NCBI GenBank assembly: GCA_038231795.1
Contig: JBBRKR010000007.1
Location: 16,491-80,490 of the forward strand
Direction: 5' to 3'
DNA length: 64,000 bases
Source of the DNA: Acidimicrobiales bacterium
GTDB taxonomy: Bacteria; Actinomycetota; Acidimicrobiia; Acidimicrobiales; JBBRKR01
Shown: positions 1 to 52,868 of the stretch, in pieces
Position numbering within the stretch: the stretch's first letter is position 1
Layout: each line of letters opens with the position of its first letter
Program-made: the position numbers and the translations under genes
Notes under the pieces: model-generated
Told to the model about the DNA's origin: nothing
Databases searched by the model: none
Seen by the model: the letters and a program-made list of their open reading frames with translations, nothing else

Positions 1-425
1 CGGCGCCCATTGTCGATGTCGTGCACGAATGGCGAGCCGTAGTTGGGAGCAAACACGGTGGCGTTGCCGCCGATCTGCACGTTGTTGGCTGGGTTGCGAG
101 CATGCTGGGTGTACATCGCTGGAGCGCTTGCTTGCACAATTTGGCGACACATGCCGCGCGGGAACCGCACTCGTGTGCCGTCCACTATGGCCCCGGCATC
201 GCCGAACACTTTGAGGGCGCTCGGGTAGTCGCGGATCTCCACGCCGACTTCTTCCAGAATGGTGTCGGCGTTGTGCTCGATGATGGCCAAGCCCTCTTCG
301 CTCACAATTTCGTACGGCTTGAGCGTGCGAGTCATGAATGGATCGCGGGCAATGGTGTGGGCTGCTCGTACGGCTTGACGCCCAGAGCGGCCGCCGCTGC
401 GGCGTGCGGTTGGTTCTTCTGACAT
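1..425 (-). CDS. MttB-superfamily (trimethylamine / glycine-betaine type) corrinoid methyltransferase. Only the N-terminal ~141 codons are present; the gene continues past the left edge.
   Basis: Absent from the ORF track because there is no stop in the window. The reverse complement from ATG (425-423) reads MSEEPTARRSGGRSGRQAVRAAHTIARDPFMTRTLKPYEIVSEEGLAIIEHNADTILEEVGVEIRDYPSALKVFGDAGAIVDGTRVRFPRGMCRQIV..., a typical MttB-family N-terminus. AGGAGG lies at 429-434 (rc). The gene starts 11 nt after the upstream activase gene. Confidence 0.8.
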   Translation of the reverse strand, partial: MSEEPTARRSGGRSGRQAVRAAHTIARDPFMTRTLKPYEIVSEEGLAIIEHNADTILEEVGVEIRDYPSALKVFGDAGAIVDGTRVRFPRGMCRQIVQASAPAMYTQHARNPANNVQIGGNATVFAPNYGSPFVHDIDNGR

Positions 426-436
426 GGGTCCTCCTG

Positions 437-2425
437 TTAGGCCCGGCGACGGCGTCGGCCGCCAGCAGATTCGGATGATGCTGATCGTTCGGGGAGAGTA
501 ACGTGCGCCGCCATGTGCGTTGTGGGGGCATCGAGATGAGGAAAGGCCATGGCTTTCACGAACAGTTCCTGAAACTTGGGTTCGGTGGCTGTCTCAATTT
601 TGATGACGCCCCGCACTGCGAGTTCCATATCGGCGCGTTGCGATTTACTGAGCAACGCTCGCACAGCGCCGGCTCCCGCGGCGTTGCCGACTGACCGCAC
701 GCCAGCCAGTTCACAGTCCGGTACGAGCCCCAAAACCATGGCGTACAGCGGGTCGATGTGGGCGCCGAATGCCCCGGCAAGACGGATGTCGGTGAGTTGC
801 TCGATGCCTGCTTGGTCGACCAACAAATCAATACCGGCCCGCAGCGCTGCCTTCGCCAATTGGATGGCCCGCACGTCGTTTTGAGTGATCATGAGCTTGG
901 TCTCGCCATTGGTATGCAGCACGTAGGAAAAGGTGCGACCCTCTGCGATGACGCGCGGGCTACGTTCGCTCGCGGCACCGTTAATCACACCGTCGTACTC
1001 CACGATGCCAGCCAAAAACATTTCGGCAATGACTTCGATAATTCCCGAGCCACAAATACCACTAATGCTGAGTTCTTCTGTCGATTCGGCAAAGCCTGGA
1101 TCGTCGCTCCACAAATCTGAGCCGATCACTTTGAAACGTGGTTCGAGCGTCTCGCGATCGATGCGGACCCGTTCGATAGCGCCGGCGGTAGCCCGCTGCC
1201 CACAACTGATCTGAGCGCCTTCAAACGCTGGCCCTGTGGGGCTCGACGCCGCGTATTGCACGACGCTTGACCCCAGCACGATTTCGGCATTGGTACCCAC
1301 ATCCACCACCAACTGCATATGGTCGCTGTGATGGGGCTGCTCGGACAAAATGACGGCAGCGGTATCGGCGCCCACATGGCCAGCAATGCAGGGAGCGAAA
1401 TAGACGTTGGCGTTGGGGGCATCAATTTCGATATCGATCGCCCGGCAATGCACTGGCTCGCTGGTCGCCAAGATAAACGGCGCCATGCCAAGAGGTGTGG
1501 GGTCGATACCCAACATCAGGTGATGCATGATCGGGTTACCCACCAACACCACGTCGAGTACGTGGGTGGCTTCCACGCCCGCTGCGGCAATCAGTTCTGC
1601 CACTAGTTCGTTGAGCGCGGTGCGAACGGCGGCGGTGAGGTTGCGCTCACCGCCCGGGTTCATCATCACGTACGACACTCGGCTCATGAGGTCTTCGCCG
1701 AAACGGATTTGAGGATTCATCCGCCCCGCGCTGCCCAGAATTTCGCCGGAGCTGAGGTCGCAAATATGCCCCGCAATAGTGGTGGAGCCACAGTCGATGG
1801 CCACTCCGTAGGCGTTGCCCACAAAGCCAGGCCACAACGCCACGAGATCGCCGCCAGTGCTGAGGGCCACGGTCATTGGCCCTCGTTCAGCGTTGAGTGT
1901 GGGATGCAACGATGCCAACAATCGAGGCGGGATCGATCGCATCACCCGGTTGTGTTGGGCCTCCACAGCGTCGGCAATGAGCTCGGCTGCGCTGCGGTCA
2001 TCGCCGAGTACAGCCTCTGTCACATCGAGGTAGAGCAGCGTATAGTTAGGGTCGACCATCAGGCCGTCGACGTTGACAGATTTGCGCACCACTTGGCGAT
2101 GCACTTGGCTCTCTTCGGGAACGTCGATCACTACGTCGCTTTTGATAATCGCCGCGCATCCCAGCCACAGGCCCGACGACAACGAACGCTTGCCGGGGTA
2201 GTCGAGTTCGGTCTGCGTCCAGCCGCCAAGGGCGTCGGCGCGGGCGTCGATCTGCCATTTGGCGAAACTACCGGTGCCGGGGGTCACCATGCATCGGCCG
2301 CAAATACCGCGCCCGCCGCACACTGAATCGATGTCAACTCCGAGTTGGCGGGCAGCCGTCAACACGTTGGTGCCCGCGTCGAATTCACCATCTAAACCAG
2401 ACGGAGTGAATACGACACGAGCCAC
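437..2425 (-). CDS. Corrinoid reductive activase (RACo-like): N-terminal 2Fe-2S ferredoxin domain plus ASKHA/DUF4445 ATPase domain
   Basis: 662 aa. N-terminal plant-type 2Fe-2S cysteine cluster SVCGGRGICGRC, followed by a long ASKHA-like body. Located inside the corrinoid methyltransferase operon. Confidence 0.8.
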   Translation of the reverse strand: MARVVFTPSGLDGEFDAGTNVLTAARQLGVDIDSVCGGRGICGRCMVTPGTGSFAKWQIDARADALGGWTQTELDYPGKRSLSSGLWLGCAAIIKSDVVIDVPEESQVHRQVVRKSVNVDGLMVDPNYTLLYLDVTEAVLGDDRSAAELIADAVEAQHNRVMRSIPPRLLASLHPTLNAERGPMTVALSTGGDLVALWPGFVGNAYGVAIDCGSTTIAGHICDLSSGEILGSAGRMNPQIRFGEDLMSRVSYVMMNPGGERNLTAAVRTALNELVAELIAAAGVEATHVLDVVLVGNPIMHHLMLGIDPTPLGMAPFILATSEPVHCRAIDIEIDAPNANVYFAPCIAGHVGADTAAVILSEQPHHSDHMQLVVDVGTNAEIVLGSSVVQYAASSPTGPAFEGAQISCGQRATAGAIERVRIDRETLEPRFKVIGSDLWSDDPGFAESTEELSISGICGSGIIEVIAEMFLAGIVEYDGVINGAASERSPRVIAEGRTFSYVLHTNGETKLMITQNDVRAIQLAKAALRAGIDLLVDQAGIEQLTDIRLAGAFGAHIDPLYAMVLGLVPDCELAGVRSVGNAAGAGAVRALLSKSQRADMELAVRGVIKIETATEPKFQELFVKAMAFPHLDAPTTHMAAHVTLPERSASSESAGGRRRRRA

Positions 2426-2433
2426 GAAAACTC

Positions 2434-3339
2434 CTATTCGGTCGGGCGTCGACGACGCCCGCCTTCACGGCCTTCACGCCCACCAGTTGGTGCGTTGGGG
2501 TCGCGGTTGGCGCGAATCCAGTTGGCGCAATCGGCATCGTTGCCCGCCAGTACGTCGGCTGCTTTTACGGCTGCTTTCACTTCAGGGTGCATTGGATTCA
2601 TAATCGCCGAGGTCATGCCTGCCCCGATGGCCATCGACAAGAAGGTGCCTGTGATGGCGTTTCGATTGGGTAATCCAAAGCTCACATTGGAGGCACCGCA
2701 TGTGGTGTTGACGCCCAGCTCGTCGCGCAGGCGACCCACCAACTTGAAGACTTGCTGACCGGCGTAACGCAGCGCCCCAATGGGCATCACCAGCGGATCG
2801 ACCACGATGTCACAGGGCTTGATGCCGTAATCGCTGGCGCGGTTCACAATCTTTTGCGCCACCAAGAAACGCACGTTGGGGTCTTCAGAAATTCCCGTTT
2901 CGTCGTTGGAAATGGCCACTACCGCAGCACCGTATTTGGCAACCAGCGGGAGAACTCGTTCCATTTGTTCGTCTTCGCCCGTAACGGAGTTCACGAGAGG
3001 CTTGCCTTGGTACACGGCCAGGCCAGCAGCGAGGGCTTCCACAATCGACGAGTCGATCGACAGCGGCACGTCGACCACCGACTGCACGAGTTGAATGGCT
3101 CGGGCCAGCAACGCAGGCTCATCAGCCAATGGGATACCAGCGTTGACGTCGAGCATTTGCGCACCGGCGAGCACTTGGGCAATGGCATCGGCTTCCACGC
3201 GGCTGAAGTCGCCGACTTTCATCTCTTCGGCCAACAGTTTGCGGCCAGTGGGGTTGATACGTTCGCCGATCATCACGAAAGCGCGATCGAACCCGATGAC
3301 GACTTCCTTGGTGGCTGAGCTCAATATGGTGTGGGTCAT
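2434..3339 (-). CDS. Pterin-binding methyltransferase (methylcorrinoid:tetrahydrofolate methyltransferase, MtgA/MeTr-like)
   Basis: 301 aa. Pterin-binding TIM-barrel signature regions: ERINPTG, LDVNAG, SIDSS, LVNSV, GASNVSFGLP. Its stop overlaps nothing, and its start overlaps the upstream gene by 4 nt. Confidence 0.8.
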   Translation of the reverse strand: MTHTILSSATKEVVIGFDRAFVMIGERINPTGRKLLAEEMKVGDFSRVEADAIAQVLAGAQMLDVNAGIPLADEPALLARAIQLVQSVVDVPLSIDSSIVEALAAGLAVYQGKPLVNSVTGEDEQMERVLPLVAKYGAAVVAISNDETGISEDPNVRFLVAQKIVNRASDYGIKPCDIVVDPLVMPIGALRYAGQQVFKLVGRLRDELGVNTTCGASNVSFGLPNRNAITGTFLSMAIGAGMTSAIMNPMHPEVKAAVKAADVLAGNDADCANWIRANRDPNAPTGGREGREGGRRRRPTE

Positions 3340-3764
3340 TCTTCGTCCTCGTCGTCGACGTTGGTGAAAGGGTCTGGTGCTTCTTCGCCATGTTCGGCGG
3401 CGTAGGCGGCATCGATGGCGTCGGCTTCTTTGACCCGATCGCGGCCCGGGCCGCGTAACACGTCGCCGCCTTCAATTCCCCCGCGGGCGGCCAAGTCGCG
3501 CAGGCGATCCTTGGTGTATTCGGCATCGATCAATCCGGCATGGGATGTGGCTTCGTTGATCAAGTCGTTGCTGCACGCTTTGGTTTCCCGCCGCCATTGT
3601 TCGACGTAGTCGTGAGCTGTGGTAACGCCAGCAAACATGGCGGCGCGATCGATGGCTTTTTGAAAGCGATGATCGAGCAACACTTGATGGCGGTCGCGAC
3701 CTGCCTGGGCGTTGACTTGGGCGGGGATGTCACGCCAATAAATCACAACCAATTTTGCCGCCAT
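3336..3764 (-). CDS. Small conserved protein of unknown function. It resembles the so-called 'virulence factor' family seen in corrinoid methyltransferase clusters. It has an acidic C-terminal tail.
   Basis: The internal ATG at 3764 gives MAAKLVVIYWRDIPAQVNAQ... (142 aa), starting 1 nt after the DUF1638 stop. The longer ORF to 3884 would overlap DUF1638 by 119 nt. The C-terminus is EEAPDPFTNVDDEDEE. Confidence 0.55.
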   Translation of the reverse strand: MAAKLVVIYWRDIPAQVNAQAGRDRHQVLLDHRFQKAIDRAAMFAGVTTAHDYVEQWRRETKACSNDLINEATSHAGLIDAEYTKDRLRDLAARGGIEGGDVLRGPGRDRVKEADAIDAAYAAEHGEEAPDPFTNVDDEDEE

Positions 3765-3765
3765 A

Positions 3766-4389
3766 TCAAACAACCTTCCCGGCCGACAGGCCAGTGATTT
3801 CCACCATTGCTGATGCGAATGGAGCGAGGCCCACATGACGATGTTCGAATCGCAAACCGATTCGGGCGGCGGCTTCTTGACCAAGGGTGATGAGTTCCGG
3901 ATCGTCTGATTGCGTGATCAAAATGACTCGTGTGTAGTTGCCAAAATACGTGTCACGGAGCTCGGGATGTTTGTCGAGACCGAGGCCCACAATCACCAGT
4001 TGTTCAAATTGGCGCACCAAGAAATCGGTGAGAAAAAACGTGCCGGGCTCGGCCTCGTGCCATGCCGCGAAATCGATGGAGCCGCTGAAAAACTCATAGC
4101 AATGCGCTCCAGGGAGACGGGTGATGTTCGTGCCGGCAATACGGGCGTCGAGCAATCCACCAGTGCCGCAATCGGCGTACCCCAAGCTGATCGAACCGTA
4201 GTTGGCTCCCCGTTCAGCGATGAGCTCACTCACCCGATCGGGTATGCGGTGGGGCCGATTGTGCAACGAGGCTGGAAGATATTCGACATCAATGTGGTGG
4301 TCAGGCAGTTGGGCAAGCACGGCACGTATCTCTCTGACTAACGCGCCGCAAGCAATAACGAGATGACGGTTAGGCGGAGTGTGCGGCAC
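3766..4389 (-). CDS. DUF1638 domain protein
   Basis: 207 aa. The region HLVIACGALVREI...YADCGTGGLLD...FFLTDFL matches my recollection of DUF1638, a family habitually linked to corrinoid methyltransferase genes. It overlaps the corrinoid protein gene by 20 nt. Confidence 0.6.
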   Translation of the reverse strand: MPHTPPNRHLVIACGALVREIRAVLAQLPDHHIDVEYLPASLHNRPHRIPDRVSELIAERGANYGSISLGYADCGTGGLLDARIAGTNITRLPGAHCYEFFSGSIDFAAWHEAEPGTFFLTDFLVRQFEQLVIVGLGLDKHPELRDTYFGNYTRVILITQSDDPELITLGQEAAARIGLRFEHRHVGLAPFASAMVEITGLSAGKVV

Positions 4390-5074
4390 GACGTTGCGCC
4401 ACCAAGGCCTTGGCCATTTCGGCGGCTACGGCGGCATCACGGCAGTAGGCATCGGCGCCAATGGCGTTCCCGAATTCTTCATTGAGTGGTGCACCGCCCA
4501 CCAACACGATGTAGTCGTCGCGCAGGCCCTTGGACACCAATGTGTCGATGACAACCTTCATGTATGGCATGGTCGTGGTGAGCAATGCCGACAGACCCAG
4601 GATGTCGGGCTTGTGCAATTCGAGGGCTGCCAAATATTTGTCGGCGTCGGTGTTGATGCCGAGGTCGAACACTTCGAATCCGGCGCCTTCCAACATCATC
4701 GCCACCAGGTTTTTGCCAATGTCGTGAATGTCGCCCTTGACGGTGCCGATGACCACTTTGCCGATCGGCGGGACGCCGGTCTCGGCCAACAGTGGCCTCA
4801 GAATAAACATGCCAGCCTTCATGGCGTTGGCGCTCAAAAGCACCTCCGGCACAAACAGGATTCCGTCACGGAAGTCGATGCCCACGATACGCATGCCCTC
4901 TACGAGAGCTTCATCTAGAACACGAGAGGCGCTCCACCCGCGACCCAACAAAATGTTGGTGCCCTCTGTGATTTCAGCGGCCAGACCGTCGTACAGATCG
5001 TCGTGCATCTGCTTGGTGAGGTCGTCGTCGTTCAGACTGTTGAGATCAATTTCTTCGAAATCGTCGTCGCTCAT
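4370..5074 (-). CDS. Corrinoid (cobalamin-binding) methyl-carrier protein, MtgC/MttC-like
   Basis: B12-binding helical cap plus a Rossmann domain with the DxHxxG motif (GDIHDIGKNLV). The start is chosen at ATG 5074 (MSDDDFEE...), which has AGGAG 7 nt upstream. The longest ORF starts at 5098. Confidence 0.85.
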   Translation of the reverse strand: MSDDDFEEIDLNSLNDDDLTKQMHDDLYDGLAAEITEGTNILLGRGWSASRVLDEALVEGMRIVGIDFRDGILFVPEVLLSANAMKAGMFILRPLLAETGVPPIGKVVIGTVKGDIHDIGKNLVAMMLEGAGFEVFDLGINTDADKYLAALELHKPDILGLSALLTTTMPYMKVVIDTLVSKGLRDDYIVLVGGAPLNEEFGNAIGADAYCRDAAVAAEMAKALVAQRRAAHSA

Positions 5075-5125
5075 CGTGGCTCCTAAAAGGCCCTGCATCG
5101 GGTGATGTCTGAGATGGGAATACTG

Positions 5126-5169
5126 TACGGAAATTCCGTAATGCGGAAACTATCCGCAATGTGGAATTT
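5126..5169. promoter_or_regulatory. Cluster of GGAA/TTCC palindromes: a candidate operator upstream of the corrinoid operon
   Basis: TACGGAA-A-TTCCGTA (5126-5140) is a perfect inverted repeat. TGCGGA-AACTA-TCCGCA lies at 5142-5158. TCCGCAATGTGGAAT (5153-5167) matches 12 of 15 positions of TCCGCTTCGTGGAAT at 11824-11838. Confidence 0.45.
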
Positions 5170-5204: not shown

Positions 5205-6845
5205 TCACGCTGGCGTGATGTAGTAATCGACGTGTTCGGGAGGCAGCGGTTCGATGCCCAAAATGATGTCGGCGGCTTTCTCGGCCAACATCATCACGGG
5301 GGCATAAATATTGCCGTTTGTCACGTGACGCATGGCCGACGCGTCAACGACACGCAGCCCGCCAAGGCCATGCACGCGCATGGTGACGGGGTCGATCACG
5401 CTCATGTCGTCGGTGCCCATTCTGCATGTGCACGACGGGTGCAAAGCCGTCTCGCCATCGGTGCGAACCCACTCCAAAATCTCTTCCCCCGTGGCGACCG
5501 CCGGCCCTGGCGACAGCTCGCCGTTCGTGAACGGTTCGAACGCCGGCTGAGCCAAAATCAGGCGTGTGACACGCACGGCTTCTTCCCACTCTTGGCGATC
5601 TTCTGGGGTGGACAGGTAGTTGAATTGCAACTTTGGTTTGGCCCGCGGATCGCGGGAGGCAATCTTTACCCAGCCTCGCGAATTCGAATACATGGGGCCC
5701 ACGTGCACTTGATATCCGTGACCGCCAGCCGGGGCCGATCCGTCGTATCGCACTGCGATCGGCAAGAAGTGATACATCAGGTTGGGATACTTCACGGTGT
5801 CGTTGGAACGGATAAAGCCGCCCGCCTCAAAGTGGTTCGTGGCGCCGGGACCCTTGCGGAAGAACAGCCACTGGAACCCAATCCACGGGCGGTTGCGCCA
5901 CTTCAGCGCCGGTGCCATCGACACTGGTTGTTTGCAGCCGTGCTGCACGTAGACCTCTAGGTGGTCTTCCATGTTTTCGCCAACGCCCGGAAGGTCATGC
6001 ACCACGGGGATGCCGAGAGTGGCGAGTTCAACGGCGTTGCCCACGCCTGACAATTGCAGTATTTGGGGGGTGTTGATGGCGCCGCCGCACAAGATGATTT
6101 CTTTGCCCACCGCCACGGTGGTGGCGCCTTTGCGAATTTGGTACTCCACACCAGTGGCTGTTTTGCCGTCGAAAATGATCTTGTTGACCAATGCTCTGGT
6201 GAGCACGGTGAGGTTGGGCCGCGACTTCTTTACTGGATGCAAATAGGCACGGGCGGCCGACAGGCGACGACCATTACGAATGTTGCGGTCAAACATGGCG
6301 AAGCCTTCCTGCTTATACCCGTTGACATCCTTCGTGAGCGGGAATCCAGCCTGTTGCACTGCTTCGAAAAAGGCACCAAACAACGGGTTTGTGGCCGGGC
6401 CACGCTCGAGCTCCAATGGGCCATGATCACCGCGGTATTCGTCGCCACCGGCAAGGCAATTTTCCATGCGTTTGAAGTACGGCAAACAGTGGGCGTAGCT
6501 CCACGTGGCCATGCCCGGCTCGCTCGCCCACCGCTCGAAATCCAATGGGTTGCCGCGTTGGAAAATCATGCAGTTGATGCTGGATGACCCACCGAGCACT
6601 TTGCCGCGAGCGTGGTAGATCTTGCGTCCGTTCATAAATGGCTCTGGTTCTGACTCGTATTTCCAATCGTAGAATTTGCTGCCGATCGGAAACGTGAGCG
6701 CAGCGGGCATGTGTATGAACACGTCCCACTTGTAATCGGGCCGCCCTGCCTCGAGCACGAGCACCTTGTTGTTGGGGTCGGCGCTCAGGCGGTTGGCAAG
6801 TGCGCAACCAGCTGAACCTCCACCCACGATGATGTAGTCGTACAT
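5205..6845 (-). CDS. betA: Choline dehydrogenase (GMC flavoprotein oxidoreductase)
   Basis: 546 aa. The N-terminus [33 protein letters not shown]...MPAAL...[12 protein letters not shown]...[11 protein letters not shown] closely parallels BetA. Confidence 0.85.
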
Positions 6846-6869: not shown

Positions 6870-8339
6870 CTAGTAGGGCGCCTCGACGTCGCCCATTTCG
6901 ACGTAGACGCTTTTGATTTGTGTGTAGTGATTGATGGCAGCGGATCCGTTTTCGCGGCCGATTCCCGATTGCTTGTAACCGCCGAACGGCATCTCGATGG
7001 GCGTGATGTTGTAGTTGTTAATCCATGTGGTGCCGGCCTGCAAACGGGCGATCACGTCGTGGGCTCGCCGGAGATCGTTAGTGAACACGCCAGCCGCCAA
7101 GCCAAACTCGGTGTCGTTGGCCCGGGCCACAACTTCGTCGTCGTCGTCGAAGCTGAGCACGCACATGACGGGGCCGAAAATCTCTTCCTGAACGATGGTC
7201 ATGTCGTCGCGGCAGTCGTCGAAAATCGTGGGCAGAACGAAGTTGCCATTGGCCAATGCGGGGTCTTCTGGTCGGCTGCCGCCACACACCACATGGGCAC
7301 CTTCTGCGATGCCGGCTGCGATGTAGCCAAGCACCTTGGCGGTGTGATCTTGGGAGATTAAGGCGCCCACATGGGTGGCGGGATTTTGAGGGTCGCCGAT
7401 CACCATTTTGCGGGTGCGGGCCACGAGACGGCGCACAAACTCGGCCTTGATCGACGAGTGCACGAACACCCGAGTGCCGTTGGAGCACACCTCGCCTTGG
7501 GTATAGAAGTTGGCCATGAGCGCGGCCGATACGGCGTTGTCGAGGTGGGCATCTTCGAAAATAATGAGCGGACTTTTGCCGCCCAGTTCCAGGGTGACGC
7601 TCTTGAGTGTGTCAGCGGCTTGGGCCATGACCTTGCGGCCGGTGCCCACTTCGCCAGTGAGCGACACCTTGGCCACGCCGGGATGGGAGCTCAGCATCTG
7701 CCCCACGCGTCCGTCGCCTTGCATCACGTTGAACACGCCGTCGGGTAGACCAGCTTCTGTGTAGATCTCGGCCAGTTTCATGGCCGTGAGGGGTGTGAGT
7801 TCGGCGGGCTTGAAGATCATGGCGTTGCCGCATGCCAGGGCGGGAGCTGATTTCCAACAGGCGATTTGGATCGGGTAATTCCATGCCCCGATGCCCACGC
7901 ACACACCAAGCGGTTCCCGGCGGGTGTAAGCCCAATTGCGGCCCAGATCAATGTGCTCTCCCGTGAGGGTGGCCGCCATTCCCGCGTAGTACTCGATGCA
8001 ATCTGCGCCCGACAGAACGTCCACGTAGAGCGCTTCGGAAATGGGCTTGCCGGTGTCGATTACTTCGAGCCTGGCGAGTTCTGCGTTGCGTTCCCGCAAG
8101 ATGCGTACCGCGTTGTTGAGGATGCGGCCCCGGGCCGCGCCCGACATGGAACGCCACTGGGCAAAGCCCTCCTGTGCCGATGTGACACATGCGTCAACAT
8201 CGGCGGCCGACGACTGACCCACTGCCGTGATGACGGTGTTGGTGGCCGGGTTGATGGAGTCAAACGTCTCGCCGGAGGTGACGGGCGAATGGGCGCCGTG
8301 AACGTAGTTGCCCACGGTCGAGGTGGAGGTGGGGTTCAC
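6870..8339 (-). CDS. betB: Betaine-aldehyde dehydrogenase (NAD-dependent ALDH family)
   Basis: 489 aa. ALDH motifs TLELGGKSP and GEVCSNGTR (catalytic Cys). Lies directly upstream of betA. Its start overlaps the IclR stop by 4 nt. Confidence 0.8.
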
Positions 8340-9112
8340 GATGCATGCTCCGATTTCACGGTGGTCAGGGTGGTGTTGTCAACGATTCGCTTTGCCGTGT
8401 CGATGACTGTTTGCGCAACTTCTGCTGCCGTGCCGGCCGAGGGGAATCGGTAGGCCGGCCCATGGGCATGGACGGCGCCGATCACCTCACCAGTTCGGGA
8501 AATGATTGGCGCAGCAACCGAATTGATGCCCTCCAGAAACTCTTCGTACACCCAACAAAATCCTTGGTGCCGTATGGCGGTGAGGCGTTTGCGCACGGCT
8601 CGGTGCTCCACCACCGAATTGGCGGTGAAGCGTTCCAACGGTCGCGACAAGTAGTCGTCGACAAATTCAGTTGGCGAGTGGGCCAGGAGAACTAGCCCAG
8701 AGGAGACCACGTGCAGCGGTACAGATTCGCCTGTCCAGTCGCGTACCTGCACGGCGTTGGTGGACTCCACTTGATCGATGTAACGCACTGAGCCACCATC
8801 CATCACGCTTAATCCAGTGGCTTCTCCGGTGTCATTCATAAGCGCCACCAGATGGGGTTTGGCGGCTGCGCCAAGGTCCCGGCCTGGTTGCACGGCGTCG
8901 GCGATTTCGAGGAACCCAGCACCGATCCGGTAGCGGCCGCCTGACGTAATTTGCTCAACTGCGCTGAGTTGTTCCAGCGTGCTCAAAAGACGCGACACGG
9001 TGCTTTTGGGCAGCCCGACAATGTCGGCCAATTCAGTGACTCCCGCTGCTCCCCCGGCCAAGCTGCGCAACACAGAAAAGGCTCGCTCGATTGATTGAAC
9101 GCTCGACATCAA
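8336..9112 (-). CDS. IclR-family transcriptional regulator
   Basis: 258 aa. N-terminal wHTH ([14 protein letters not shown]...[23 protein letters not shown]) followed by an IclR effector domain. Confidence 0.85.
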
Positions 9113-9153: not shown

Positions 9154-10008
9154 CTACTTAGGAAAGGCGTTCTGCAGCCGGGCCGCAGTGAGTGTGTTTT
9201 CCAACAGGCAGGCAATAGTCATGGGCCCGGTGCCGCCGGGCATTGGCGTGATGGCCCCGGCGACATGTTGCACGTTGTCGAAATCCACGTCGCCCACGAT
9301 GCCGCTTTCGGTGCGCGACACACCCACATCGATGACTGTGGCCCCGAGCTTCACGTGGTCGACGGTCACCATGCGAGCCTGGCCAGCGGCGGCCACAATG
9401 ATGTCGGCATCGCGACAAACGTCGATCATGTCGGGCGTGCGCGAATGGGCCAGCGTCACAGTGGCGTCGACACCCTTGCGGGCCAAAAGCAACACTTGGG
9501 GAAGGCCCACCAGGGTGCTGCGACCAATGACCACGGCCCGCTTGCCGGCGGTAGGAATGTTGTAGCGCTCCAGCAATCGGATGACCCCGAGAGGCGTGCA
9601 CGGCACGAGGCCAGGCGTACCGCGAACCAGCCGGCCCATCGATTGTTCTGTGAGTCCGTCGACGTCTTTCTCGGGCGGAATGTGGGCCAACACAGCCTCG
9701 GCATCGAGCCCGGCTGGCAACGGAAGTTGGCACAAAATGCCGTGAACAGAAGGGTCGGCGGCCAGCGCCTTAACGGCATCTTCGACCTGTTGCTGGGTGG
9801 CGTCTTGAGGGAGCTCCACGTGTCGCGATGCCATACCTGCTTCTTGAGCCTTCTTGTGCTTGGAACGCACGTAAATCTGGCTGGGTTTGTCGACGCCAAC
9901 CAACACGGTGGCGAGGCACACATTGGGGTTGCCAGCGGCTTCGATGGTGACCCGCAACTGGGCCACCATCTCGTCGCGAAGTTTGTTGCCATCGAGCAGT
10001 ATTGCCAC
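9154..10008 (-). CDS. folD: Bifunctional methylene-THF dehydrogenase / methenyl-THF cyclohydrolase
   Basis: 284 aa. LATVLVG...PSQIYVRSKHKKA, GILCQLPLP, VVIGRSTLVG and PGGTGPMT are classic FolD blocks. Confidence 0.9.
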   Translation of the reverse strand: MAILLDGNKLRDEMVAQLRVTIEAAGNPNVCLATVLVGVDKPSQIYVRSKHKKAQEAGMASRHVELPQDATQQQVEDAVKALAADPSVHGILCQLPLPAGLDAEAVLAHIPPEKDVDGLTEQSMGRLVRGTPGLVPCTPLGVIRLLERYNIPTAGKRAVVIGRSTLVGLPQVLLLARKGVDATVTLAHSRTPDMIDVCRDADIIVAAAGQARMVTVDHVKLGATVIDVGVSRTESGIVGDVDFDNVQHVAGAITPMPGGTGPMTIACLLENTLTAARLQNAFPK

Positions 10009-10041: not shown

Positions 10042-11739
10042 CTAGCTGAGGCCGATGATTTCGCCGTTTTCATCGAAGTCGATGATGCTGGCAGCAGGGG
10101 CAGATCCGAGGCCGGGCATGGTGGTCATTTCGCCACAGATCGGGTAAATGAACCCTGCGCCCACCGAGGCACGGGCCTCTCGCACGTTGAGGGTGTGGCC
10201 AGTGGGCGCGCCCTTGAGGGTGGAGTCGCCAGAGATGGAAAGGTGAGTCTTGGCAATGCACACCGGAAGGTGGCCGAAGCCGTTCTTTTCGTAGCGGGCC
10301 AGCTGCGTGTTGGCTACTGCCGAGTAGGTGACATTGGCAGCGCCGTAGATCTTGGTAGCGACCGCTTCAATTTTCTCTTTGAGGGTGGCGGTGTCGGGGT
10401 AGCAGAAGGCGAACGTGTTCTCCTCGTTGCATGCTTCGACCACGGCGCGAGCCAGGTCGGTGGCGCCAGCACCGCCGTCAGCAAAGTGAGTGCATACCGC
10501 CACGCGGGCGCCGACTGATTCGGCGATTTCGCGGATGGCTTGATGCTCGCTGGCGAAGTCGCCGGGGAAGGCGTTGATGGCCACCACTGGTGACACGCCG
10601 TGCACCTTGACGTTTTCGATTTGCTTGATGAGGTTCGCAGCGCCGGCGCGCACGTCGTCGGGATTTTCGGCAAGCAGGTCGGCGGGAAGGGGCTTGCCGG
10701 CCACGATCTTGAACTTGCCACTGTGGGCCTTGAGGGCACGCACGGTGGCCACCAACACAGCTGCGTCGGGGACCATGCCAGAGTTACGGCACTTGATGTT
10801 GAAGAAGCGTTCTGCGCCCATGTCGGCGCCGAAGCCAGCCTCTGTGATGAGGTAGTCGCCGGCGTGGATGCCGATCATGTCACCCACGATTGACGAGTTG
10901 CCGTGAGCAATGTTGCCGAACGGACCAGCGTGGACAATCACAGGAGTGTTTTCGAGCGTCTGCAACAAGTTGGGCTTGATGGCTTCACGCATGATGACGG
11001 CCATGGAGCCGGCGCCTTTGAGTTGCTCGGCGGTGACGGGGGTGCCGTCTTTGGTGTAACCCACCACGATGCGTCCCATGCGGGCTCGCATGTCTTCCAC
11101 AGAGGTCGACAGCGCCAAGATGGCCATCACTTCGCTGGCGGCCGTGATGTCGAAACCGGTTTGGCGTACGACGCCATCGGCCTTGCCACCGAGGCCCACG
11201 ATGATGTTGCGCAGGCTGCGGTCGTTGACGTCCATCACTCGACGCCATGTGATGTTGTCGATATCAAGGCCCAACTCGTTGCCTTGGTGCAGATGGTTGT
11301 CGACCATGGCGCTGAGCAAATTGTGGGCTGCGGTCACGGCGTGGAAATCGCCGGTGAGGTGAAGGTTGAGCAATTCCATGGGAATCACTTGGCTGTACCC
11401 GCCGCCGGCCGCGCCGCCCTTGATACCAAACGTGGGGCCCATCGAAGGTTGGCGAAGGCTGATGACAGCGTTCTTGCCGATGTGCTTCATGGCTTGGCCG
11501 AGGCCGACGGTGGTGGTGGTTTTGCCTTCGCCCAGCGGTGTGGGGGTGATGGCGGTGACCACCACGTATTTGGCTTTGGGGCGATCTTTGAGTTCGTCGA
11601 TCGCTTCCAGTTTGATCTTGGCCAATTCGGGACCATACGATTCTAGCAGATGAGGACCGATGCCCATTTGGGCGGCGATTTCGGTGAGCGGCAGTGGTTT
11701 GCCTGCTCGGGCGATTTCAAGATCAGACGGAAATCCCAT
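10042..11739 (-). CDS. fhs: Formate--tetrahydrofolate ligase
   Basis: TPLGEGKTTTTVGL P-loop and family-wide conservation. The start is chosen at ATG 11739 (MGFPSDLEIA...). The longest ORF begins at GTG 11790. Confidence 0.9.
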   Translation of the reverse strand: MGFPSDLEIARAGKPLPLTEIAAQMGIGPHLLESYGPELAKIKLEAIDELKDRPKAKYVVVTAITPTPLGEGKTTTTVGLGQAMKHIGKNAVISLRQPSMGPTFGIKGGAAGGGYSQVIPMELLNLHLTGDFHAVTAAHNLLSAMVDNHLHQGNELGLDIDNITWRRVMDVNDRSLRNIIVGLGGKADGVVRQTGFDITAASEVMAILALSTSVEDMRARMGRIVVGYTKDGTPVTAEQLKGAGSMAVIMREAIKPNLLQTLENTPVIVHAGPFGNIAHGNSSIVGDMIGIHAGDYLITEAGFGADMGAERFFNIKCRNSGMVPDAAVLVATVRALKAHSGKFKIVAGKPLPADLLAENPDDVRAGAANLIKQIENVKVHGVSPVVAINAFPGDFASEHQAIREIAESVGARVAVCTHFADGGAGATDLARAVVEACNEENTFAFCYPDTATLKEKIEAVATKIYGAANVTYSAVANTQLARYEKNGFGHLPVCIAKTHLSISGDSTLKGAPTGHTLNVREARASVGAGFIYPICGEMTTMPGLGSAPAASIIDFDENGEIIGLS

Positions 11740-11800
11740 GGCGTACAGTCCCCTTGTGCATTCGATTCGCCCTTGTGGCGCAGAACCCACAGTCTAACCT

Positions 11801-11840
11801 ACGATTCCATCATGAGGAACGATTCCGCTTCGTGGAATAC
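11801..11840. promoter_or_regulatory. GGAA/TTCC repeat cluster in the divergent fhs / pabBC promoter region
   Basis: ACGATTCC is a direct repeat at 11801-08 and 11819-26. Inverted repeats are TTCC-N7-GGAA (11805-19), GGAA-CGA-TTCC (11816-26) and ATTCC-N7-GGAAT (11822-38). It shares GGAA-N4-TCCGC-N3-GTGGAAT with 5145-5167. Confidence 0.45.
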
Positions 11841-13691
11841 CTGACCAACACCGTGCCTGTTTTGGAATCGACGTCGGCAATCAATGTTCGTTTTGACGAC
11901 CTCACTCCTGGCGCTCCCCAAGCGTGGGAGTTTGTCGGCCTGGAGTCGATCATCGTGGCCACCGGTTTTGATGACGTGGTTCCCGCGTTGGCCGAAGCAT
12001 CACAGGCCGCTGGAGCTGGAAAATGGGTGGCGGGATTTGTGAGCTATGAGGCCGCTGCTGGCATCGATTCCTTGTTCGTCATTTCGGCTAGCGACCATGC
12101 ATGCCTGCCGTTGGTGTGGTTCGGGGTATTCGATTCCCGCACACCTGTTGAGCCGATCGATGCCCAGCCGCCCACGCCCGATGAGTGGTCGGTGGCCGAT
12201 GTGTCGCTGGCCTTCGGACGAGAGTGGCATACGAAATCGGTGGAGGTCATTCGAGAAGCGATTGCCGCTGGCGACGTGTATCAAGTGAATCTGTGCGACA
12301 GAGCGCGAGGCGTGTTTGCGGGCGACTCGCTGGCCATGTACCGATCGTTGGCTCACGCCCAACGCGCCAAATATCACGCCTACATTTCGACGCCCGATTT
12401 CACCGTGGTATCGGCATCGCCGGAATTGTTTTTCGAACTCTCCTCCCCTGTTGTCGATGGCTCTTCGGCGGGCCAGATGATTCGCACCCGTCCCATGAAA
12501 GGCACCGCTCGACGGGGCCGATGGCCAGCAGAAGATCGGGCTCGGGCGGCGGCACTTTTCGAATCGCCAAAGGAGCGGGCCGAGAACGTGATGATCGTGG
12601 ATCTATTGCGCAACGACCTGGGCCGCATAGCCGAGGTGGGCTCTGTGCAGGTGACTGATTTGCTTGGCCTCGAGCGCTATCCCACGGTGTGGCAATTGAC
12701 GTCGACCATCGAAGCGAACCTGACGCCGGGCACCGATTTCGTCGACGTGATGACGGCGTTGTTTCCGTGTGGTTCGATCACTGGTGCACCGAAAATCGCC
12801 GCCATCCACCACATTGCCGATCTGGAACACGAGCCGCGTGGTGTGTATTGCGGCGCCATTGGATGGCTCGCTCCGCCTCACGCAACCGGGCCGGCGGCAC
12901 GGTTTTCGGTGGCGATCCGCACCGCAGTAATCGACCAGCGAAGTGGCGCTGTGGAGTACGGGGCGGGCGGCGGGATCACTATCGATTCGGAACCAGTGGC
13001 CGAGTTCGATGAGCTCCGCTCGAAGCACAGAATTCTGACTCACCCGTCGGCCACGGCATCGATTCTGGAGACCATGTTGTGGACGTCGGCGGCCGGGATC
13101 GAGTTGCTGGAATCTCATCTCGATCGCATGGAGCGGTCGGCCGAATACTTCGCCCATCCCTTCGATCGCCACGCCATCCGATCGGAGATTCTTGCCGTGT
13201 GTGGCGCAGGTGGTTCGGAAGCGTTCATGGTGCGAGCGTTGCTCAACCCCCATGGCGTGCTGACGGTTGAATTGCGCGATCCGCCGGCTGCTCACGGCGG
13301 GCCGGTTCGATTGGCGGTGCACCATCACGCAATCGACAACAATGATCCCCGGTGGTACCACAAGACGACCGACCGGGCCCGTTACGCGGAGGCCAAACTG
13401 CACCACCCCGATGCCGACGACATCGTGTTCGTGAACCAGTACGGCCAAGTCACAGAGACCACGATGTACGCAGTGGCAGCGCTCATCGATGGCGTGTGGC
13501 TCACCCCGCCTATCGAAGACGGGTGCCTGCCCAGTGTGGCCACCCGAACTGCGGTTGCCCTGGGCCATTTGACGCGTTCGTCAATTTCGGTGGAACAATT
13601 CTTGGCGGCGTCGGAAATCAAAGTGGGGAATGCGGTGCGGGGCTGGCAACCGGCCAGTGCACATTCAGAGCCACTGGTTTCCGAAAGATAA
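11832..13691 (+). CDS. pabB: Fused aminodeoxychorismate synthase component I (PabB) and aminodeoxychorismate lyase-like class IV aminotransferase (PabC)
   Basis: Chorismate-binding blocks VYQVNL, PELFFEL, TRPMKGTARRG, ENVMIVDLLRNDLGR, FPCGSITGAPK and RGVYCGAIGW, followed by a C-terminal ~200 aa class IV-like domain. The start is uncertain: GTG 11694 would overlap fhs, and GTG 11832 or GTG 11853 are the alternatives. Confidence 0.8.
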   Translation: MEYLTNTVPVLESTSAINVRFDDLTPGAPQAWEFVGLESIIVATGFDDVVPALAEASQAAGAGKWVAGFVSYEAAAGIDSLFVISASDHACLPLVWFGVFDSRTPVEPIDAQPPTPDEWSVADVSLAFGREWHTKSVEVIREAIAAGDVYQVNLCDRARGVFAGDSLAMYRSLAHAQRAKYHAYISTPDFTVVSASPELFFELSSPVVDGSSAGQMIRTRPMKGTARRGRWPAEDRARAAALFESPKERAENVMIVDLLRNDLGRIAEVGSVQVTDLLGLERYPTVWQLTSTIEANLTPGTDFVDVMTALFPCGSITGAPKIAAIHHIADLEHEPRGVYCGAIGWLAPPHATGPAARFSVAIRTAVIDQRSGAVEYGAGGGITIDSEPVAEFDELRSKHRILTHPSATASILETMLWTSAAGIELLESHLDRMERSAEYFAHPFDRHAIRSEILAVCGAGGSEAFMVRALLNPHGVLTVELRDPPAAHGGPVRLAVHHHAIDNNDPRWYHKTTDRARYAEAKLHHPDADDIVFVNQYGQVTETTMYAVAALIDGVWLTPPIEDGCLPSVATRTAVALGHLTRSSISVEQFLAASEIKVGNAVRGWQPASAHSEPLVSER

Positions 13692-16543: not shown

Positions 16544-16617
<74 letters not shown>

Positions 16618-17888: not shown

Positions 17889-18866
17889 TCAACTGACCTT
17901 TGCCATCATGAGTGGTGACGCAGCACAGATCTTGGTGGCGACGTCGACCTGTGCGAGCAGCTGAGTAGGCAGCAGCTCGAGATCGAGCGCGTGGGCGTGC
18001 AGCTGTACGCCACTGCCCCGTACGATCAATTGCTGTTCGGCCTCGTTGCCCTTGGCGTAAACGAGGTGGCCGACTGGCAGGCCGAGCGCAGTGCAGTACG
18101 CCAGCATCTGATACAGGTCAGCGTTCGGATAGCCGGCCACTTTCTCGACTTTGTACTTGGCATCGATTACTGCGATCGGCCTGTCGCCTCGGTACCAGAC
18201 GAGATCCGGCGCCATCTTCACCATGTTTGTCACATCAAGCGTCTGCGGGTCCTGCGGCCGAACTCGTCCGTCGATCTTTTCCAATGACCCGGTCAGGGCG
18301 GCGGTGACGAAGTCCTCGAAGACGGTTGCCATGTCGATGATGAAGCCGTTGACCTCGATGGCGCCAGCAGGTAGGTCGATAGACCGTTGCTTCAGCACCA
18401 TCGAGGCGAACCATAAGACGGTGTCGTAGTGCACGTTGCGACGGCTCGCCCGCCAGCTCGGCAACGGCTGCCCAGGGATCAGTTCGCTCACGTCGTCGAG
18501 GCGCTGAATGATCGCTCGCAATTTGCGGGTGACCATCGGATCAAGCCCGGGAACACGGCGGAGGATCTTGGCGGCAGCTCGAACGAGTTGGTTCTCCGCT
18601 ACGTCGATGGTGAAGTCGTCGTAGTGAACGAGCAGCGGTGTGATCTGTCCGAAGCGTCGGGTGACCTGCTCTCGGTATCGCATCCGGCCTCGGACGACAG
18701 CGAGTTCGTCGTCGCGTTCGACATAGCCCTGGATGACGCCACGACCTAGTGCGCGGTCGGCCTGGCGCACCAAGGCGTCGGCGAGGACGTGTACCCGCGC
18801 GAGATCGAAGAGGTCTTCTACGCCCATCCCGACGTGCTCGAAGTTGCTGTCGTTGGCGTGCCTCAC
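17889..18866 (-). CDS. McrC-like restriction endonuclease subunit (PD-(D/E)xK), probably 5'-truncated, with no McrB partner
   Basis: McrC-like blocks ALGRGVIQGYVERDDELAVVRGRMRY, FTIDVAENQL and the nuclease core PDLVW...IAVIDAKYK. The first ~31 codons of the ORF are merely antisense to the ligase remnant, so real homology starts near 18773. Confidence 0.55.
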   Translation of the reverse strand: MRHANDSNFEHVGMGVEDLFDLARVHVLADALVRQADRALGRGVIQGYVERDDELAVVRGRMRYREQVTRRFGQITPLLVHYDDFTIDVAENQLVRAAAKILRRVPGLDPMVTRKLRAIIQRLDDVSELIPGQPLPSWRASRRNVHYDTVLWFASMVLKQRSIDLPAGAIEVNGFIIDMATVFEDFVTAALTGSLEKIDGRVRPQDPQTLDVTNMVKMAPDLVWYRGDRPIAVIDAKYKVEKVAGYPNADLYQMLAYCTALGLPVGHLVYAKGNEAEQQLIVRGSGVQLHAHALDLELLPTQLLAQVDVATKICAASPLMMAKVS

Positions 18867-41923: not shown

Positions 41924-42424
41924 TCACATATTGACTTCAGGAGACCTGACCCACATGAGATCGGCATCGAAACTCAGCGTGTAATCGGGAATGAATTCGA
42001 TGATCACACGTTGAGGCGAATCCAAAAATTTCTCGAACGCCTTGGCGGCATCCTCGCTGTCGCGGCGTATCGAACCAGCGAACTCTGGATAGAACCAATC
42101 CTTAGTTTCCCGGTCATCGTGCACAACGCACGAACCCTTGTAGGTGACCGTCTTGCCGCCACCCATTTTGGTGCCTGAGCTATTGAGGCACAACGACGCG
42201 CGCGGATACCGTCGAATCGCTGAAATACGCGCTCGCCGCTCGGCAGCCGTGAGCCAAAATTTGCCGTCTTTGGGCAAGCACGACATGACGACGCCGAAGG
42301 CTTCGCCTGCCTTGTTGGTCCACATGAAAACGCATTCGCGCTGTATCTGCACCAGACGAGCTTCAAGCTCGGCCGAGAGCCCGCACTCTGTGAGGTCTTC
42401 GTAATCGTCGTGTTGGTCGGCCAT
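41924..42424 (-). CDS. Pyridoxamine 5'-phosphate oxidase-like (split beta-barrel, FMN/F420) family protein
   Basis: 166 aa. The PNPOx-like core is my reading, at moderate confidence. The start shares 1 nt with the dioxygenase stop (TGATG). Confidence 0.5.
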   Translation of the reverse strand: MADQHDDYEDLTECGLSAELEARLVQIQRECVFMWTNKAGEAFGVVMSCLPKDGKFWLTAAERRARISAIRRYPRASLCLNSSGTKMGGGKTVTYKGSCVVHDDRETKDWFYPEFAGSIRRDSEDAAKAFEKFLDSPQRVIIEFIPDYTLSFDADLMWVRSPEVNM

Positions 42425-51743: not shown

Positions 51744-52817
51744 TCACAGATCCGACAACACAGCTTTTAGCATGGGCAGGTCCATGGCGCGAGCCATGAT
51801 TTCGTCCATACCGCCAACGACGCCGGTCACGTTGGCGAGCACCACATGCTCAAGTCCGTTGCGTGCGTACGCTTCGAATTGCCCAGCGAGTTCTTCGGCG
51901 TTGCCAATAAACAACACCTGCTGCACCATTTCAAACGGGATAGTGGGCGCCAAATCACGAAGGTCGTCGGGGTTCAAATCGTGGATGATCACATCAATGA
52001 AACCCTTGGAATCATTGCCTAGTGGATGCTTCAATCCGTTGGCTTCCCACATTGAACCCATGGCAAAGAGGCCAAACAATTTGCCGAGCGGTTCGCGCTC
52101 GAACATTTCTGCGGCCCGCTCCACGCTCTCGGCAAAGATGATGAATGGAAGTAGCGACGCCTCTGGAGTCGGACGCCCAGCTGCCGATGCGTGCCCGGCG
52201 ATCGCGCCCAAATTTTTGCCGTACTCTTCTGGCGACATCCACCATGCTGGGATCCAGCCGTCGCCGTATTGACCGGTGAGCCGCAACATGCGGGGGCCAT
52301 GGCCAGCAACCCATACTGCTGGCTTACCGCGTCCCTCAGCTTCCAGTGGCAATCCCATGCGCCCCACGCCGGTTGGCATTTTCCCGGTATCGAGCAAACT
52401 GCGAAGTTCTTCGAGCACGCCTACGGGCTTGTCGAACGGGTACCCAAAAGGCAGCAGGCTTTCCGCTTCGCCAGATCCAATGCCCAAGATGAACCCGCCA
52501 GGGTTGAGATCATTAAGGGTGAGCGAAGCGCGGGCCAGATCGGCAGCGCCGCGCCGGGTGGCGTCGGTGACGCAAATGCCGTATGGCTTTGGTGTCATCG
52601 TCCCAACTCGGGCACCGTAGATAAACGGGTCGTAAAAAGCATCGGGATCAGCGGCCAGAGCGGAGAGCGGAGTGTCGGCCCACAACCCAGGGTGGAACAC
52701 ACCCAGGAGATGATCGGGAGCCCAGTACGAATCGAATCCAGCGGCTTCGTACATCGGCAATAGTTGCTCAGTGCTGCCGAAGGGGAACTGGGCGGGGAGG
52801 TTGACTCCGACCTTCAT
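51744..52817 (-). CDS. Luciferase-like monooxygenase (LLM) class, probably an F420-dependent oxidoreductase
   Basis: ATG 52817 with AAAGGAA upstream (MKVGVNLP...). TIM-barrel LLM pattern. Confidence 0.7.
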   Translation of the reverse strand: MKVGVNLPAQFPFGSTEQLLPMYEAAGFDSYWAPDHLLGVFHPGLWADTPLSALAADPDAFYDPFIYGARVGTMTPKPYGICVTDATRRGAADLARASLTLNDLNPGGFILGIGSGEAESLLPFGYPFDKPVGVLEELRSLLDTGKMPTGVGRMGLPLEAEGRGKPAVWVAGHGPRMLRLTGQYGDGWIPAWWMSPEEYGKNLGAIAGHASAAGRPTPEASLLPFIIFAESVERAAEMFEREPLGKLFGLFAMGSMWEANGLKHPLGNDSKGFIDVIIHDLNPDDLRDLAPTIPFEMVQQVLFIGNAEELAGQFEAYARNGLEHVVLANVTGVVGGMDEIMARAMDLPMLKAVLSDL

Positions 52818-52848
52818 AGGGTGTTCCTTTTCTTTATGGGATTGTGGC

Positions 52849-52868
52849 GGTACCACGAGGTGGGTACC
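52849..52868. promoter_or_regulatory. Second copy of the GGTACCACG..GTGGGTACC element
   Basis: GGTACCACGAGGTGGGTACC lies 32 nt upstream of the LLM ATG. A third GGGTAC lies at 52884-52889. Confidence 0.35.

Follow-up and report, generated by a model that had tools for sequence, protein, structure and literature searches.

A probable choline and glycine-betaine catabolic gene cluster built around an aerobic-type MtgB-MtgC-MtgD methyltransferase in Acidimicrobiia

The anaerobic MtgB-MtgC-MtgA system of Desulfitobacterium hafniense, in which a methyl group of glycine betaine passes to a Co(I)-corrinoid protein and on to tetrahydrofolate (THF), was reportedly described by Ticak and colleagues in 2014. 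Here we analyse a stretch of 64,000 nucleotides from an Acidimicrobiales bacterium (contig JBBRKR010000007.1, positions 16,491 to 80,490), called the window below, in which a six-gene cassette for such a methyl transfer lies next to genes for choline oxidation. We think it probable that the region is a choline and glycine-betaine catabolic cluster around an aerobic-type glycine betaine:tetrahydrofolate methyltransferase, MtgB-MtgC-MtgD.

Ruegeria pomeroyi needs MtgC and MtgD both to grow aerobically on betaine and to make methionine (Mausz et al. PNAS 2025, PMC12478193). Betaine, choline and carnitine induce MtgB1 and MtgB2 (PF06253; SPO2108 and SPO2134) in the same bacterium, along with a RamA-like protein, DUF1638 and MetF2 (PMC12478193). 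Co-located clusters occur in S. meliloti, SAR116, SAR324 and SUP05, the genes for MtgBCDE and two reactivation modules lying together in S. meliloti, and about 5% of the mtgC reads from TARA Oceans were placed in Actinomycetota (PMC12478193). DUF1638 is a B12-reactivation accessory according to the genetics of P. inhibens (Price et al. 2018, PMC5764234). An earlier note on the window regarded non-pyrrolysine systems as established in strict anaerobes. This view is outdated, as the aerobic R. pomeroyi system has been demonstrated genetically and by proteomics (PMC12478193). Catabolism by Co(I) methyl transfer has been known from an aerobe since 2025; what is new here is the host lineage, Acidimicrobiia, and a more compact operon. 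We found no indexed paper on an aerobic MtgBCD system specifically in Acidimicrobiia or Actinobacteria.

The cluster, its host and its relatives

The cluster covers 11.8 kb, with all relevant genes on the minus strand, and is transcribed in the order fhs, folD, IclR, betB, betA, a 130-nt spacer, mtgC, DUF1638, PF13769, mtgD, RACo/RamA-like activase and the N-terminus of the MttB-family gene (Table 1). Open reading frames (ORFs) and Pfam matches confirm the six co-directional genes at positions 1-5074, their order and their spacing: mtgC and DUF1638 overlap by 20 nt, DUF1638 and the PF13769 gene are 1 nt apart, PF13769 and mtgD overlap by 4 nt, and gaps of 8 and 11 nt separate mtgD from the activase gene and the latter from the MttB gene. 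The family searches proposed earlier (MTTB, B12-binding, Pterin_bind, RACo and DUF1638) all gave Pfam matches. One gene had been described as coding for a small acidic protein; its product is in fact a PF13769 family member, conserved in the cassette across phyla. The placement of the cassette downstream of choline and betaine-aldehyde dehydrogenase genes is borne out by NCBIfam, as both BetA and BetB exceed their equivalog cut-offs. The IclR, FolD and Fhs genes further upstream go beyond the earlier description, and FolD and Fhs complete the one-carbon (C1) branch.

The cassette genes are orthologous to those of S. meliloti. Identity to the S. meliloti proteins (locus L085) is 74% for MtgC, 65% for MtgD, 62% for MtgB (measured with the ortholog from locus L001, see below), 52% for the RACo-like protein, 45% for DUF1638 and 40% for PF13769. 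In S. meliloti the matching genes lie together near a bmt gene, and the MtgB of that locus is the protein of PDB entry 4YYC. R. pomeroyi MtgB1 and MtgB2 were represented in the comparison by proxies, S. meliloti and a Cognatishimia locus (L029, 73% identical).

From the sequence we infer the substrate, the direction of flux and the regulation; the roles of MtgC, MtgD, the RamA-like protein and DUF1638 would be those described in R. pomeroyi and P. inhibens, by analogy. Choline would be oxidised to glycine betaine by BetA and BetB. MtgB, a non-pyrrolysine TIM barrel, would then transfer one N-methyl group to the Co(I) of MtgC, releasing dimethylglycine (DMG), and MtgD would hand the methyl group to THF. 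Methyl-THF would be oxidised to formate, with formation of ATP, via a MetF-like enzyme (seen in relatives, past the window edge), FolD and Fhs. Any Co(II) formed by O2 or by side reactions would be returned to Co(I) by the RACo-type [2Fe-2S] ATPase, aided by DUF1638. The route from choline to glycine betaine, and from there to DMG and methyl-THF, had already been put forward; the genes are consistent with it, and it is strengthened by FolD and Fhs in the window and by MetF-like, electron-transfer flavoprotein (ETF) and DMG-dehydrogenase-like genes in relatives.

The closest public relatives of the window are metagenome-assembled genomes (MAGs) of Acidimicrobiia and Ilumatobacteraceae. The best of them, JAYWAI010000272.1 (L001), is 86% identical in the MttB N-terminus, 95% in MtgD, 94% in MtgC and 92% in BetA. 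In a sample of the best 80 loci, with one genome per GTDB species, about 35 Acidimicrobiia/Actinomycetota MAGs and two Chloroflexota MAGs had the cassette with its genes ordered as in the window or nearly so, some of them without a match to MtgD, DUF1638 or PF13769. In Porticoccaceae/SAR92 and Halieaceae the order is MttB-MtgC-DUF1638-PF13769-MetV-MetF-MtgD-RamA. Judging from gene order, the cassette is common and vertically stable in Acidimicrobiia. A recent horizontal acquisition of the cluster was also considered, and is ruled out by its GC content (0.58-0.61, the same as in the remainder of the window) together with a gene order kept in about 35 Acidimicrobiia/Actinomycetota species.

The window further encodes three P450s, an Fe/Mn superoxide dismutase, a Rieske ring-hydroxylating oxygenase, an RPE65-type dioxygenase and luciferase-like and FMO-like monooxygenases. 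The presence of such O2-requiring or O2-detoxifying enzymes across the window, in addition to the Acidimicrobiia relatives, supports the aerobic actinobacterial context that the earlier note had assigned to it. As the window stops at MttB codon 141, one could imagine a decayed or inactive module, with the MttB gene disrupted further on or with a Co(I) chemistry that is dead in air. We consider this extremely improbable: the six ORFs are intact and tightly coupled for translation, the orthologs are intact in about 80 loci and keep their catalytic and cofactor motifs, and the same system is active in aerobically grown R. pomeroyi (PMC12478193). The cassette, intact as far as it is visible, is very probably functional.

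MtgB and its probable substrate

The 141 MttB codons of the window include no stop codon, and the pyrrolysine position (around residue 347) falls outside the window. The L001 ortholog is an uninterrupted ORF of 512 aa (L001 6113-7651), and the protein of locus L082, a near-identical contig, is the same as that of L001. Absence of an in-frame TAG, proposed earlier as a check, thus holds for the window codons and for the complete L001 ortholog, while the C-terminal 370 residues or so of the window gene are beyond its edge. Leu occupies the pyrrolysine column in the L001 ortholog, as in the D. hafniense enzyme (DhMtgB), and the family model for pyrrolysine-containing MttB, TIGR02369, gave 248 bits against a cut-off of 525. 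The L001 ortholog matched 4YYC, the S. meliloti 'putative trimethylamine methyltransferase', at 7e-200, the D. hafniense glycine betaine methyltransferase MtgB (2QNE/9YCE) at 4e-121, and the pyrrolysine-containing MttB of Methanosarcina barkeri (7XCL) at 2e-29. A second group of MttB paralogs, with Phe and not Leu at the pyrrolysine column, lies about 3.5 kb downstream in L017, L020-L022 and L026.

Betaine binding by DhMtgB has been defined by mutagenesis and a ligand-bound structure: Y97 and F356 make cation-pi contacts, while R312 and H348 hold the carboxylate (Picking et al. 2026, PMC13080624). In enzymes for other substrates the aromatic pair is lost, whereas R312 and, in fewer cases, H348 are retained (PMC13080624). 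Our alignment comprised 83 MttB homologs taken from the retrieved loci, and 76 of these are MtgB orthologs. The equivalents of Y97, R312 and H348 are invariant in all 76, and the Tyr matching Y97 is present in the window portion of MtgB. In the same 76 proteins, position 352 is Trp and position 356 is Gly (I352 and F356 in DhMtgB; residues 382 and 386 in L001). This covarying swap would place a Trp one helical turn away, and may relocate the cation-pi partner and restore the aromatic box.

The genomic context also points to betaine. In the window, betA and betB are immediately upstream of the cassette; BetA homologs adjoin it in about ten relatives (L001, L005, L009-L012, L014, L024 and L028), and a BetB homolog does so in L024. 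In L001 the MttB gene is followed by a divergent MetF/MTHFR-like gene. L082 continues with genes for ETF alpha and beta and for an 838-aa DAO-FAO_M-GCV_T protein, the architecture of DMG/sarcosine dehydrogenases; this is the step expected next after betaine demethylation, wired to the respiratory chain. The SAR92 cassette adjoins a DMG-dehydrogenase-type gene, MetV-MetF, Fhs and two AraC regulators with a DJ-1/PfpI domain (L052 7323-9836 and 17670-19735), an architecture that we take to be that of the betaine-responsive regulator GbdR. By analogy, these GbdR-like regulators would be independent support for a betaine regulon around the cassette.

Alternatively, the MttB-family enzyme might use another quaternary amine (proline betaine, carnitine, gamma-butyrobetaine, phosphocholine or choline), and the adjacency of betA and betB would then be coincidental or serve another branch. 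The missing F356 would agree with this, since enzymes for other substrates lose the aromatic pair while keeping R312 (PMC13080624), as would the several paralogs in many genomes, including the second MttB mentioned above. Y97 is nevertheless kept, and the clade-invariant Trp near position 356 could complete the box. Moreover, this alternative leaves aside the BetA homologs beside the cassette in relatives and the DMG-dehydrogenase-type, ETF and DJ-1/PfpI-AraC genes of L082 and SAR92, and the nearest characterised relative is, by a wide margin, a glycine betaine enzyme. We therefore hold another substrate to be distinctly unlikely.

Several points weigh against glycine betaine demethylation by an intact MtgB. 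The full DhMtgB tetrad Y97/R312/H348/F356 is absent, its fourth residue being Gly throughout the clade. MtgB was placed by PDB-anchored scores and the residue signature, in a comparison covering 4YYC, DhMtgB and the pyrrolysine-containing MttB. The window mtgB was read to residue 141, and it is by its 86%-identical ortholog that the gene appears to be intact. Within the aerobic MtgB clade, 4YYC was deposited as a 'putative' enzyme. The role of the R. pomeroyi mtgB genes is drawn from proteomics (PMC12478193). Finally, the MetF-like protein of relatives scores 22.3 bits, slightly under the Pfam MTHFR cut-off of 24. With these points taken into account, glycine betaine is still, in our estimation, the likely substrate of the window MtgB and the most probable one. 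The earlier note had drawn the substrate from context only. We still infer it, now also from the residue signature and from the closeness to DhMtgB.

Carrier, folate partner, activase and accessory proteins

MtgC has a B12-binding cap (PF02607) and a Rossmann B12 domain (PF02310), and the DxHxxG motif noticed earlier in this carrier reads DIHDIG. The protein starts with an acidic extension (MSDDDFEEIDLNSLNDDDL), and an alternative ATG lies upstream at 5098. It scores below the cut-offs of both NCBIfam models for anaerobe MtgC (207 against 370 bits and 165 against 310), yet these are its best NCBIfam matches; its best PDB match is 1Y80 (1.3e-58). MtgD, in turn, exceeds the NF005719 cut-off (350 against 259 bits) and ends in an Arg-rich tail (GGREGREGGRRRRPTE). 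Its best PDB matches are the AcsE-type MeTr 2YCK and the MetH pterin module 1Q7M, with MT2DH also returned, and at E <= 1e-3 none of the MtgA entries 6SJ8, 6SK4, 6SJS and 6SJO (codes from PMC7154762) was matched. By these family relationships, the pterin-binding enzyme of the window is an MtgD of the PF00809 MetH/AcsE lineage and not MtgA. Consequently, of the parts list first proposed (MtgB, MtgC and MtgA plus an activase) the parts and their order stand, but the THF methyltransferase is of the MtgD type and MtgC stays under the cut-offs of the anaerobe models.

The activase consists of an N-terminal [2Fe-2S] ferredoxin domain, a linker, a middle domain and an ASKHA ATPase domain, followed by the poly-Arg C-tail GGRRRRRA. 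It aligns over its full length with the RACo of C. hydrogenoformans (3ZYY, 1.3e-77), including the Cys motif CGGxGxCGxC. Its NCBIfam scores, 322 bits for AcsV and 109 bits for RamA, are both under the cut-off.

Two operator-like inverted repeats, one in the betA-mtgC spacer and one upstream of fhs, share the motif TCCGCNNNGTGGAAT, of which the 64 kb window has exactly two copies where chance would give about 0.008. The motif recurs in the equivalent betA-mtgC spacer of L001 (1272-1286) and L082; in five further Acidimicrobiia loci (L017 4281-4295, L020 4314-4328, L022 1948-1962, L025 4304-4318 and L026 4279-4293) it lies immediately upstream of the IclR-mtgC operon. In 17 Acidimicrobiia loci, an IclR homolog stands beside the cassette or at its head. 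The IclR regulator of the cluster is probably the protein that binds the motif, and by binding the copies at mtgC and fhs it would unite the genes for demethylation and C1 oxidation in a single regulon. Rfam at the gathering threshold returned a single tRNA in the whole 64 kb and no cobalamin riboswitch or other RNA element. Scans for sigma-70 promoters and terminators performed at chance level and were not used.

The cassette core (MtgC, MtgD, RACo-like protein and DUF1638) could also serve, mainly or additionally, as a split cobalamin-dependent methionine synthase. This possibility overlaps with betaine catabolism, which would then be its second function. All four protein types are needed for methionine prototrophy in P. 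inhibens (PMC5764234), and R. pomeroyi mutants in mtgC and mtgD are methionine auxotrophs (PMC12478193). MtgC and MtgD are, in addition, about 75% identical to their gammaproteobacterial homologs against about 52% for Fhs; that they are so much better kept across phyla agrees with the carrier and its folate partner being strongly constrained, as expected of an essential function. Nevertheless, the cluster genes and the scanned window ORFs of at least 200 aa brought up no PF02574 (MtgE) gene. The cassette lies between choline-oxidation and C1-oxidation genes and has an operator-like motif apparently in common with fhs, and both this position and the motif point to a catabolic regulon. We thus regard methionine synthesis as an unlikely main or additional role of this copy, and keep betaine catabolism as the preferred reading.

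The PF13769 protein was found in 44 of the 45 related loci having MtgC and DUF1638, and its gene directly precedes MetV (DUF5981)-MetF in S. meliloti (L085 9108-9410) and SAR92 (L052 12891-13223). Its AlphaFold2 (AF2) model has a predicted local distance difference test (pLDDT) score of 82.7 overall and above 90 at residues 1-100, an alpha/beta core that is followed by a disordered acidic tail. Foldseek gave no PDB analogue for this model (best E 0.1, TM <= 0.24), and a sequence search of the PDB had no match either. PF13769 is absent from both key papers (PMC12478193 and PMC5764234), and no indexed paper mentioning it was found. From its conservation, PF13769 is a component of the cassette across phyla and not filler, and its membership in the cassette may be new.

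In DUF1638, Cys14, Cys74 and Cys97 are invariant or nearly so, His43, His96 and His141 are invariant, and His183 and His185 are nearly invariant, a pattern that suggests a metal or cluster site. The public gene call of 184 aa omits the N-terminal IACGAL segment with Cys14; the ORF of 207 aa is preferred because this conserved segment fits the family alignment better. The AF2 model (pLDDT 92.2) shows a two-lobed alpha/beta fold, for which the fold search returned weak matches and no significant PDB analogue. As neither PF13769 nor DUF1638 had a significant PDB analogue in the fold searches, no function was transferred to them from structure.

Charged terminal tails are a further feature of the cassette proteins (Table 1). 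MtgB has an Arg/Gly-rich N-terminal extension (ARRSGGRSGRQAVRAAH), MtgD ends in GGRRRRP and the RACo-like protein in the tail given above; the C-terminus of S. meliloti MtgE/Bmt (L085) ends in RERRRRA. Control tails (DUF1638, BetA, Fhs, IclR and others) are mostly near neutral and have no Arg/Lys run, and 6% of the MtgC C-tails have one. The solved anaerobe homologs (DhMtgB, the Moorella corrinoid protein, RACo and AcsE) align without charged tails. The pattern holds in four phyla or classes, Alpha- and Gammaproteobacteria as well as Acidimicrobiia among them, and may be undescribed so far. We propose, tentatively and with some doubt, that the poly-Arg/Gly tails of the carrier's partners and the acidic tail of MtgC could form an electrostatic tether replacing the covalent linkage of MetH, and that PF13769 could be an obligatory subunit linking the methyltransferase to methyl-THF oxidation.

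Divergent from fhs is a gene for a fused aminodeoxychorismate synthase / class IV aminotransferase (PabB-PabC-like; Chorismate_bind and Aminotran_4), so that a gene for the folate precursor para-aminobenzoate (pABA) adjoins the THF-dependent C1 genes. Further along the window, a gene for an McrBC-family restriction component comes after the lone tRNA gene. The set of oxygenases is unusually dense, with short-chain dehydrogenases/reductases (SDRs), TetR regulators and a thiolase in between; this part of the window suggests a lipid, terpenoid or steroid-like catabolism.

Table 1. Features of the 64,000-nt window, with database matches or measurements
Feature	Position	Strand	Match or measurement
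mtgB (MttB superfamily, non-pyrrolysine type), first 141 codons, rest beyond window edge	1..425	-	Pfam MTTB 9.4e-41
RACo/RamA-like reductive activase	437..2425	-	Pfam Fer2 + RACo_linker + Raco_middle + RACo_C_ter (RACo_C_ter 1.1e-82)
mtgD, methyl-corrinoid:tetrahydrofolate methyltransferase, MetH-pterin/AcsE type	2434..3339	-	Pfam Pterin_bind 1.1e-26
PF13769 ('Virulence_fact') protein, 142 aa	3336..3764	-	Pfam 3.3e-17
DUF1638 protein	3766..4389	-	Pfam DUF1638 4.8e-25
mtgC, corrinoid carrier	4370..5074	-	Pfam B12-binding 5.5e-27 + B12-binding_2 6.5e-14
betA, choline dehydrogenase (GMC family)	5205..6845	-	TIGR01810 842 bits (cut-off 732); Pfam GMC_oxred_N/C
betB, betaine-aldehyde dehydrogenase	6870..8339	-	NF009725 808 bits (cut-off 593); TIGR01804 690 bits (cut-off 669)
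IclR-family transcriptional regulator	8336..9112	-	Pfam HTH_IclR + IclR_C
folD, methylene-THF dehydrogenase / methenyl-THF cyclohydrolase	9154..10008	-	Pfam THF_DHG_CYH + THF_DHG_CYH_C
fhs, formate-tetrahydrofolate ligase	10042..11742	-	NF010030 805 bits (cut-off 652)
17-nt inverted repeat with TCCGCAATGTGGAAT	5131..5169		operator-like, about 59-93 nt upstream of mtgC start
Second inverted-repeat copy (TCCGCTTCGTGGAAT)	11804..11838		operator-like, about 62-96 nt upstream of fhs start
MtgC N-tail	5018-5074		N-terminal 30 aa: mean net charge -10.3 (n = 50 loci); at least 4 Arg/Lys in any 6 residues: 0%
MtgB N-tail	375-425		N-terminal 36 aa: mean net charge +6.2 (n = 81 loci); at least 4 Arg/Lys in any 6: 41%
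MtgD C-tail	2434-2481		C-terminal 25 aa: mean net charge +4.5 (n = 53 loci); at least 4 Arg/Lys in any 6: 89%
RACo-like C-tail	437-466		C-terminal 25 aa: mean net charge +4.3 (n = 59 loci); at least 4 Arg/Lys in any 6: 92%
PabB-PabC-like fusion	11694-13691	+	Chorismate_bind + Aminotran_4
P450	13618-14778
tRNA gene	16544-16614		Rfam
McrBC-family restriction component	17889-18866
P450	24822-26027
RPE65 carotenoid-type dioxygenase	42424-43776
Rieske oxygenase alpha subunit	48803-50194
P450	50414-51706
Luciferase-like monooxygenase	51744-52883
FMO/BVMO-like monooxygenase	58704-60512

Comparison with known systems

The cluster would extend aerobic B12-dependent demethylation of glycine betaine to Acidimicrobiia, a class of mostly uncultured actinobacteria that is abundant in soils, fresh waters and oceans. 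A pathway from choline to formate in a single co-directional cluster could provide this lineage with a clean genetic marker of its demand for betaine, choline and B12, as well as a compact gene set for heterologous reconstitution. The charged tails, the PF13769 partner, the Trp/Gly swap and the common operator-like motif are testable leads on the assembly and regulation of split corrinoid methyltransferases.

Among the known systems, the pyrrolysine-containing MttB of Methanosarcina barkeri shares the PF06253 superfamily fold with MtgB but is distant from it. The activase resembles RACo in all four domains, with the [2Fe-2S] Cys motif and the ASKHA ATPase domain. Unlike RACo and methanogen RamA, it would serve the corrinoid protein of a methyltransferase in an aerobe; it also stays under the AcsV and RamA cut-offs and carries a poly-Arg C-tail.

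With the D. hafniense MtgB-MtgC-MtgA system, the cluster shares the transfer logic from betaine through a Co(I)-corrinoid protein to THF, and a homologous MtgB with Y97, R312, H348 and Leu at the pyrrolysine position. It differs in having a PF00809 THF methyltransferase, an MtgC under the equivalog cut-offs, and Gly, accompanied by the Trp, in place of F356. The aerobic cassette also adds DUF1638, PF13769 and the charged tails.

The closest likeness is to the aerobic MtgBCD systems of R. pomeroyi, P. inhibens and S. meliloti, with the same five protein families, an aerobic host and a link to MetF, FolD and Fhs. The window holds what characterises this type: a non-pyrrolysine PF06253 MtgB, an MtgC of a lineage distinct from anaerobe MtgC, a stand-alone PF00809 MtgD, and an activase with ferredoxin and DUF4445/ASKHA domains together with DUF1638. 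In contrast to those systems, the host belongs to Acidimicrobiia and not to Pseudomonadota, and MtgE is missing near the cassette among the cluster genes and the ORFs scanned. The MetF-like partner of relatives is divergent, and MetV does not appear among the called genes of L082 and L083. Finally, whereas the R. pomeroyi genes are scattered, the parts in the window are gathered in one tight operon with betAB, IclR and fhs-folD.

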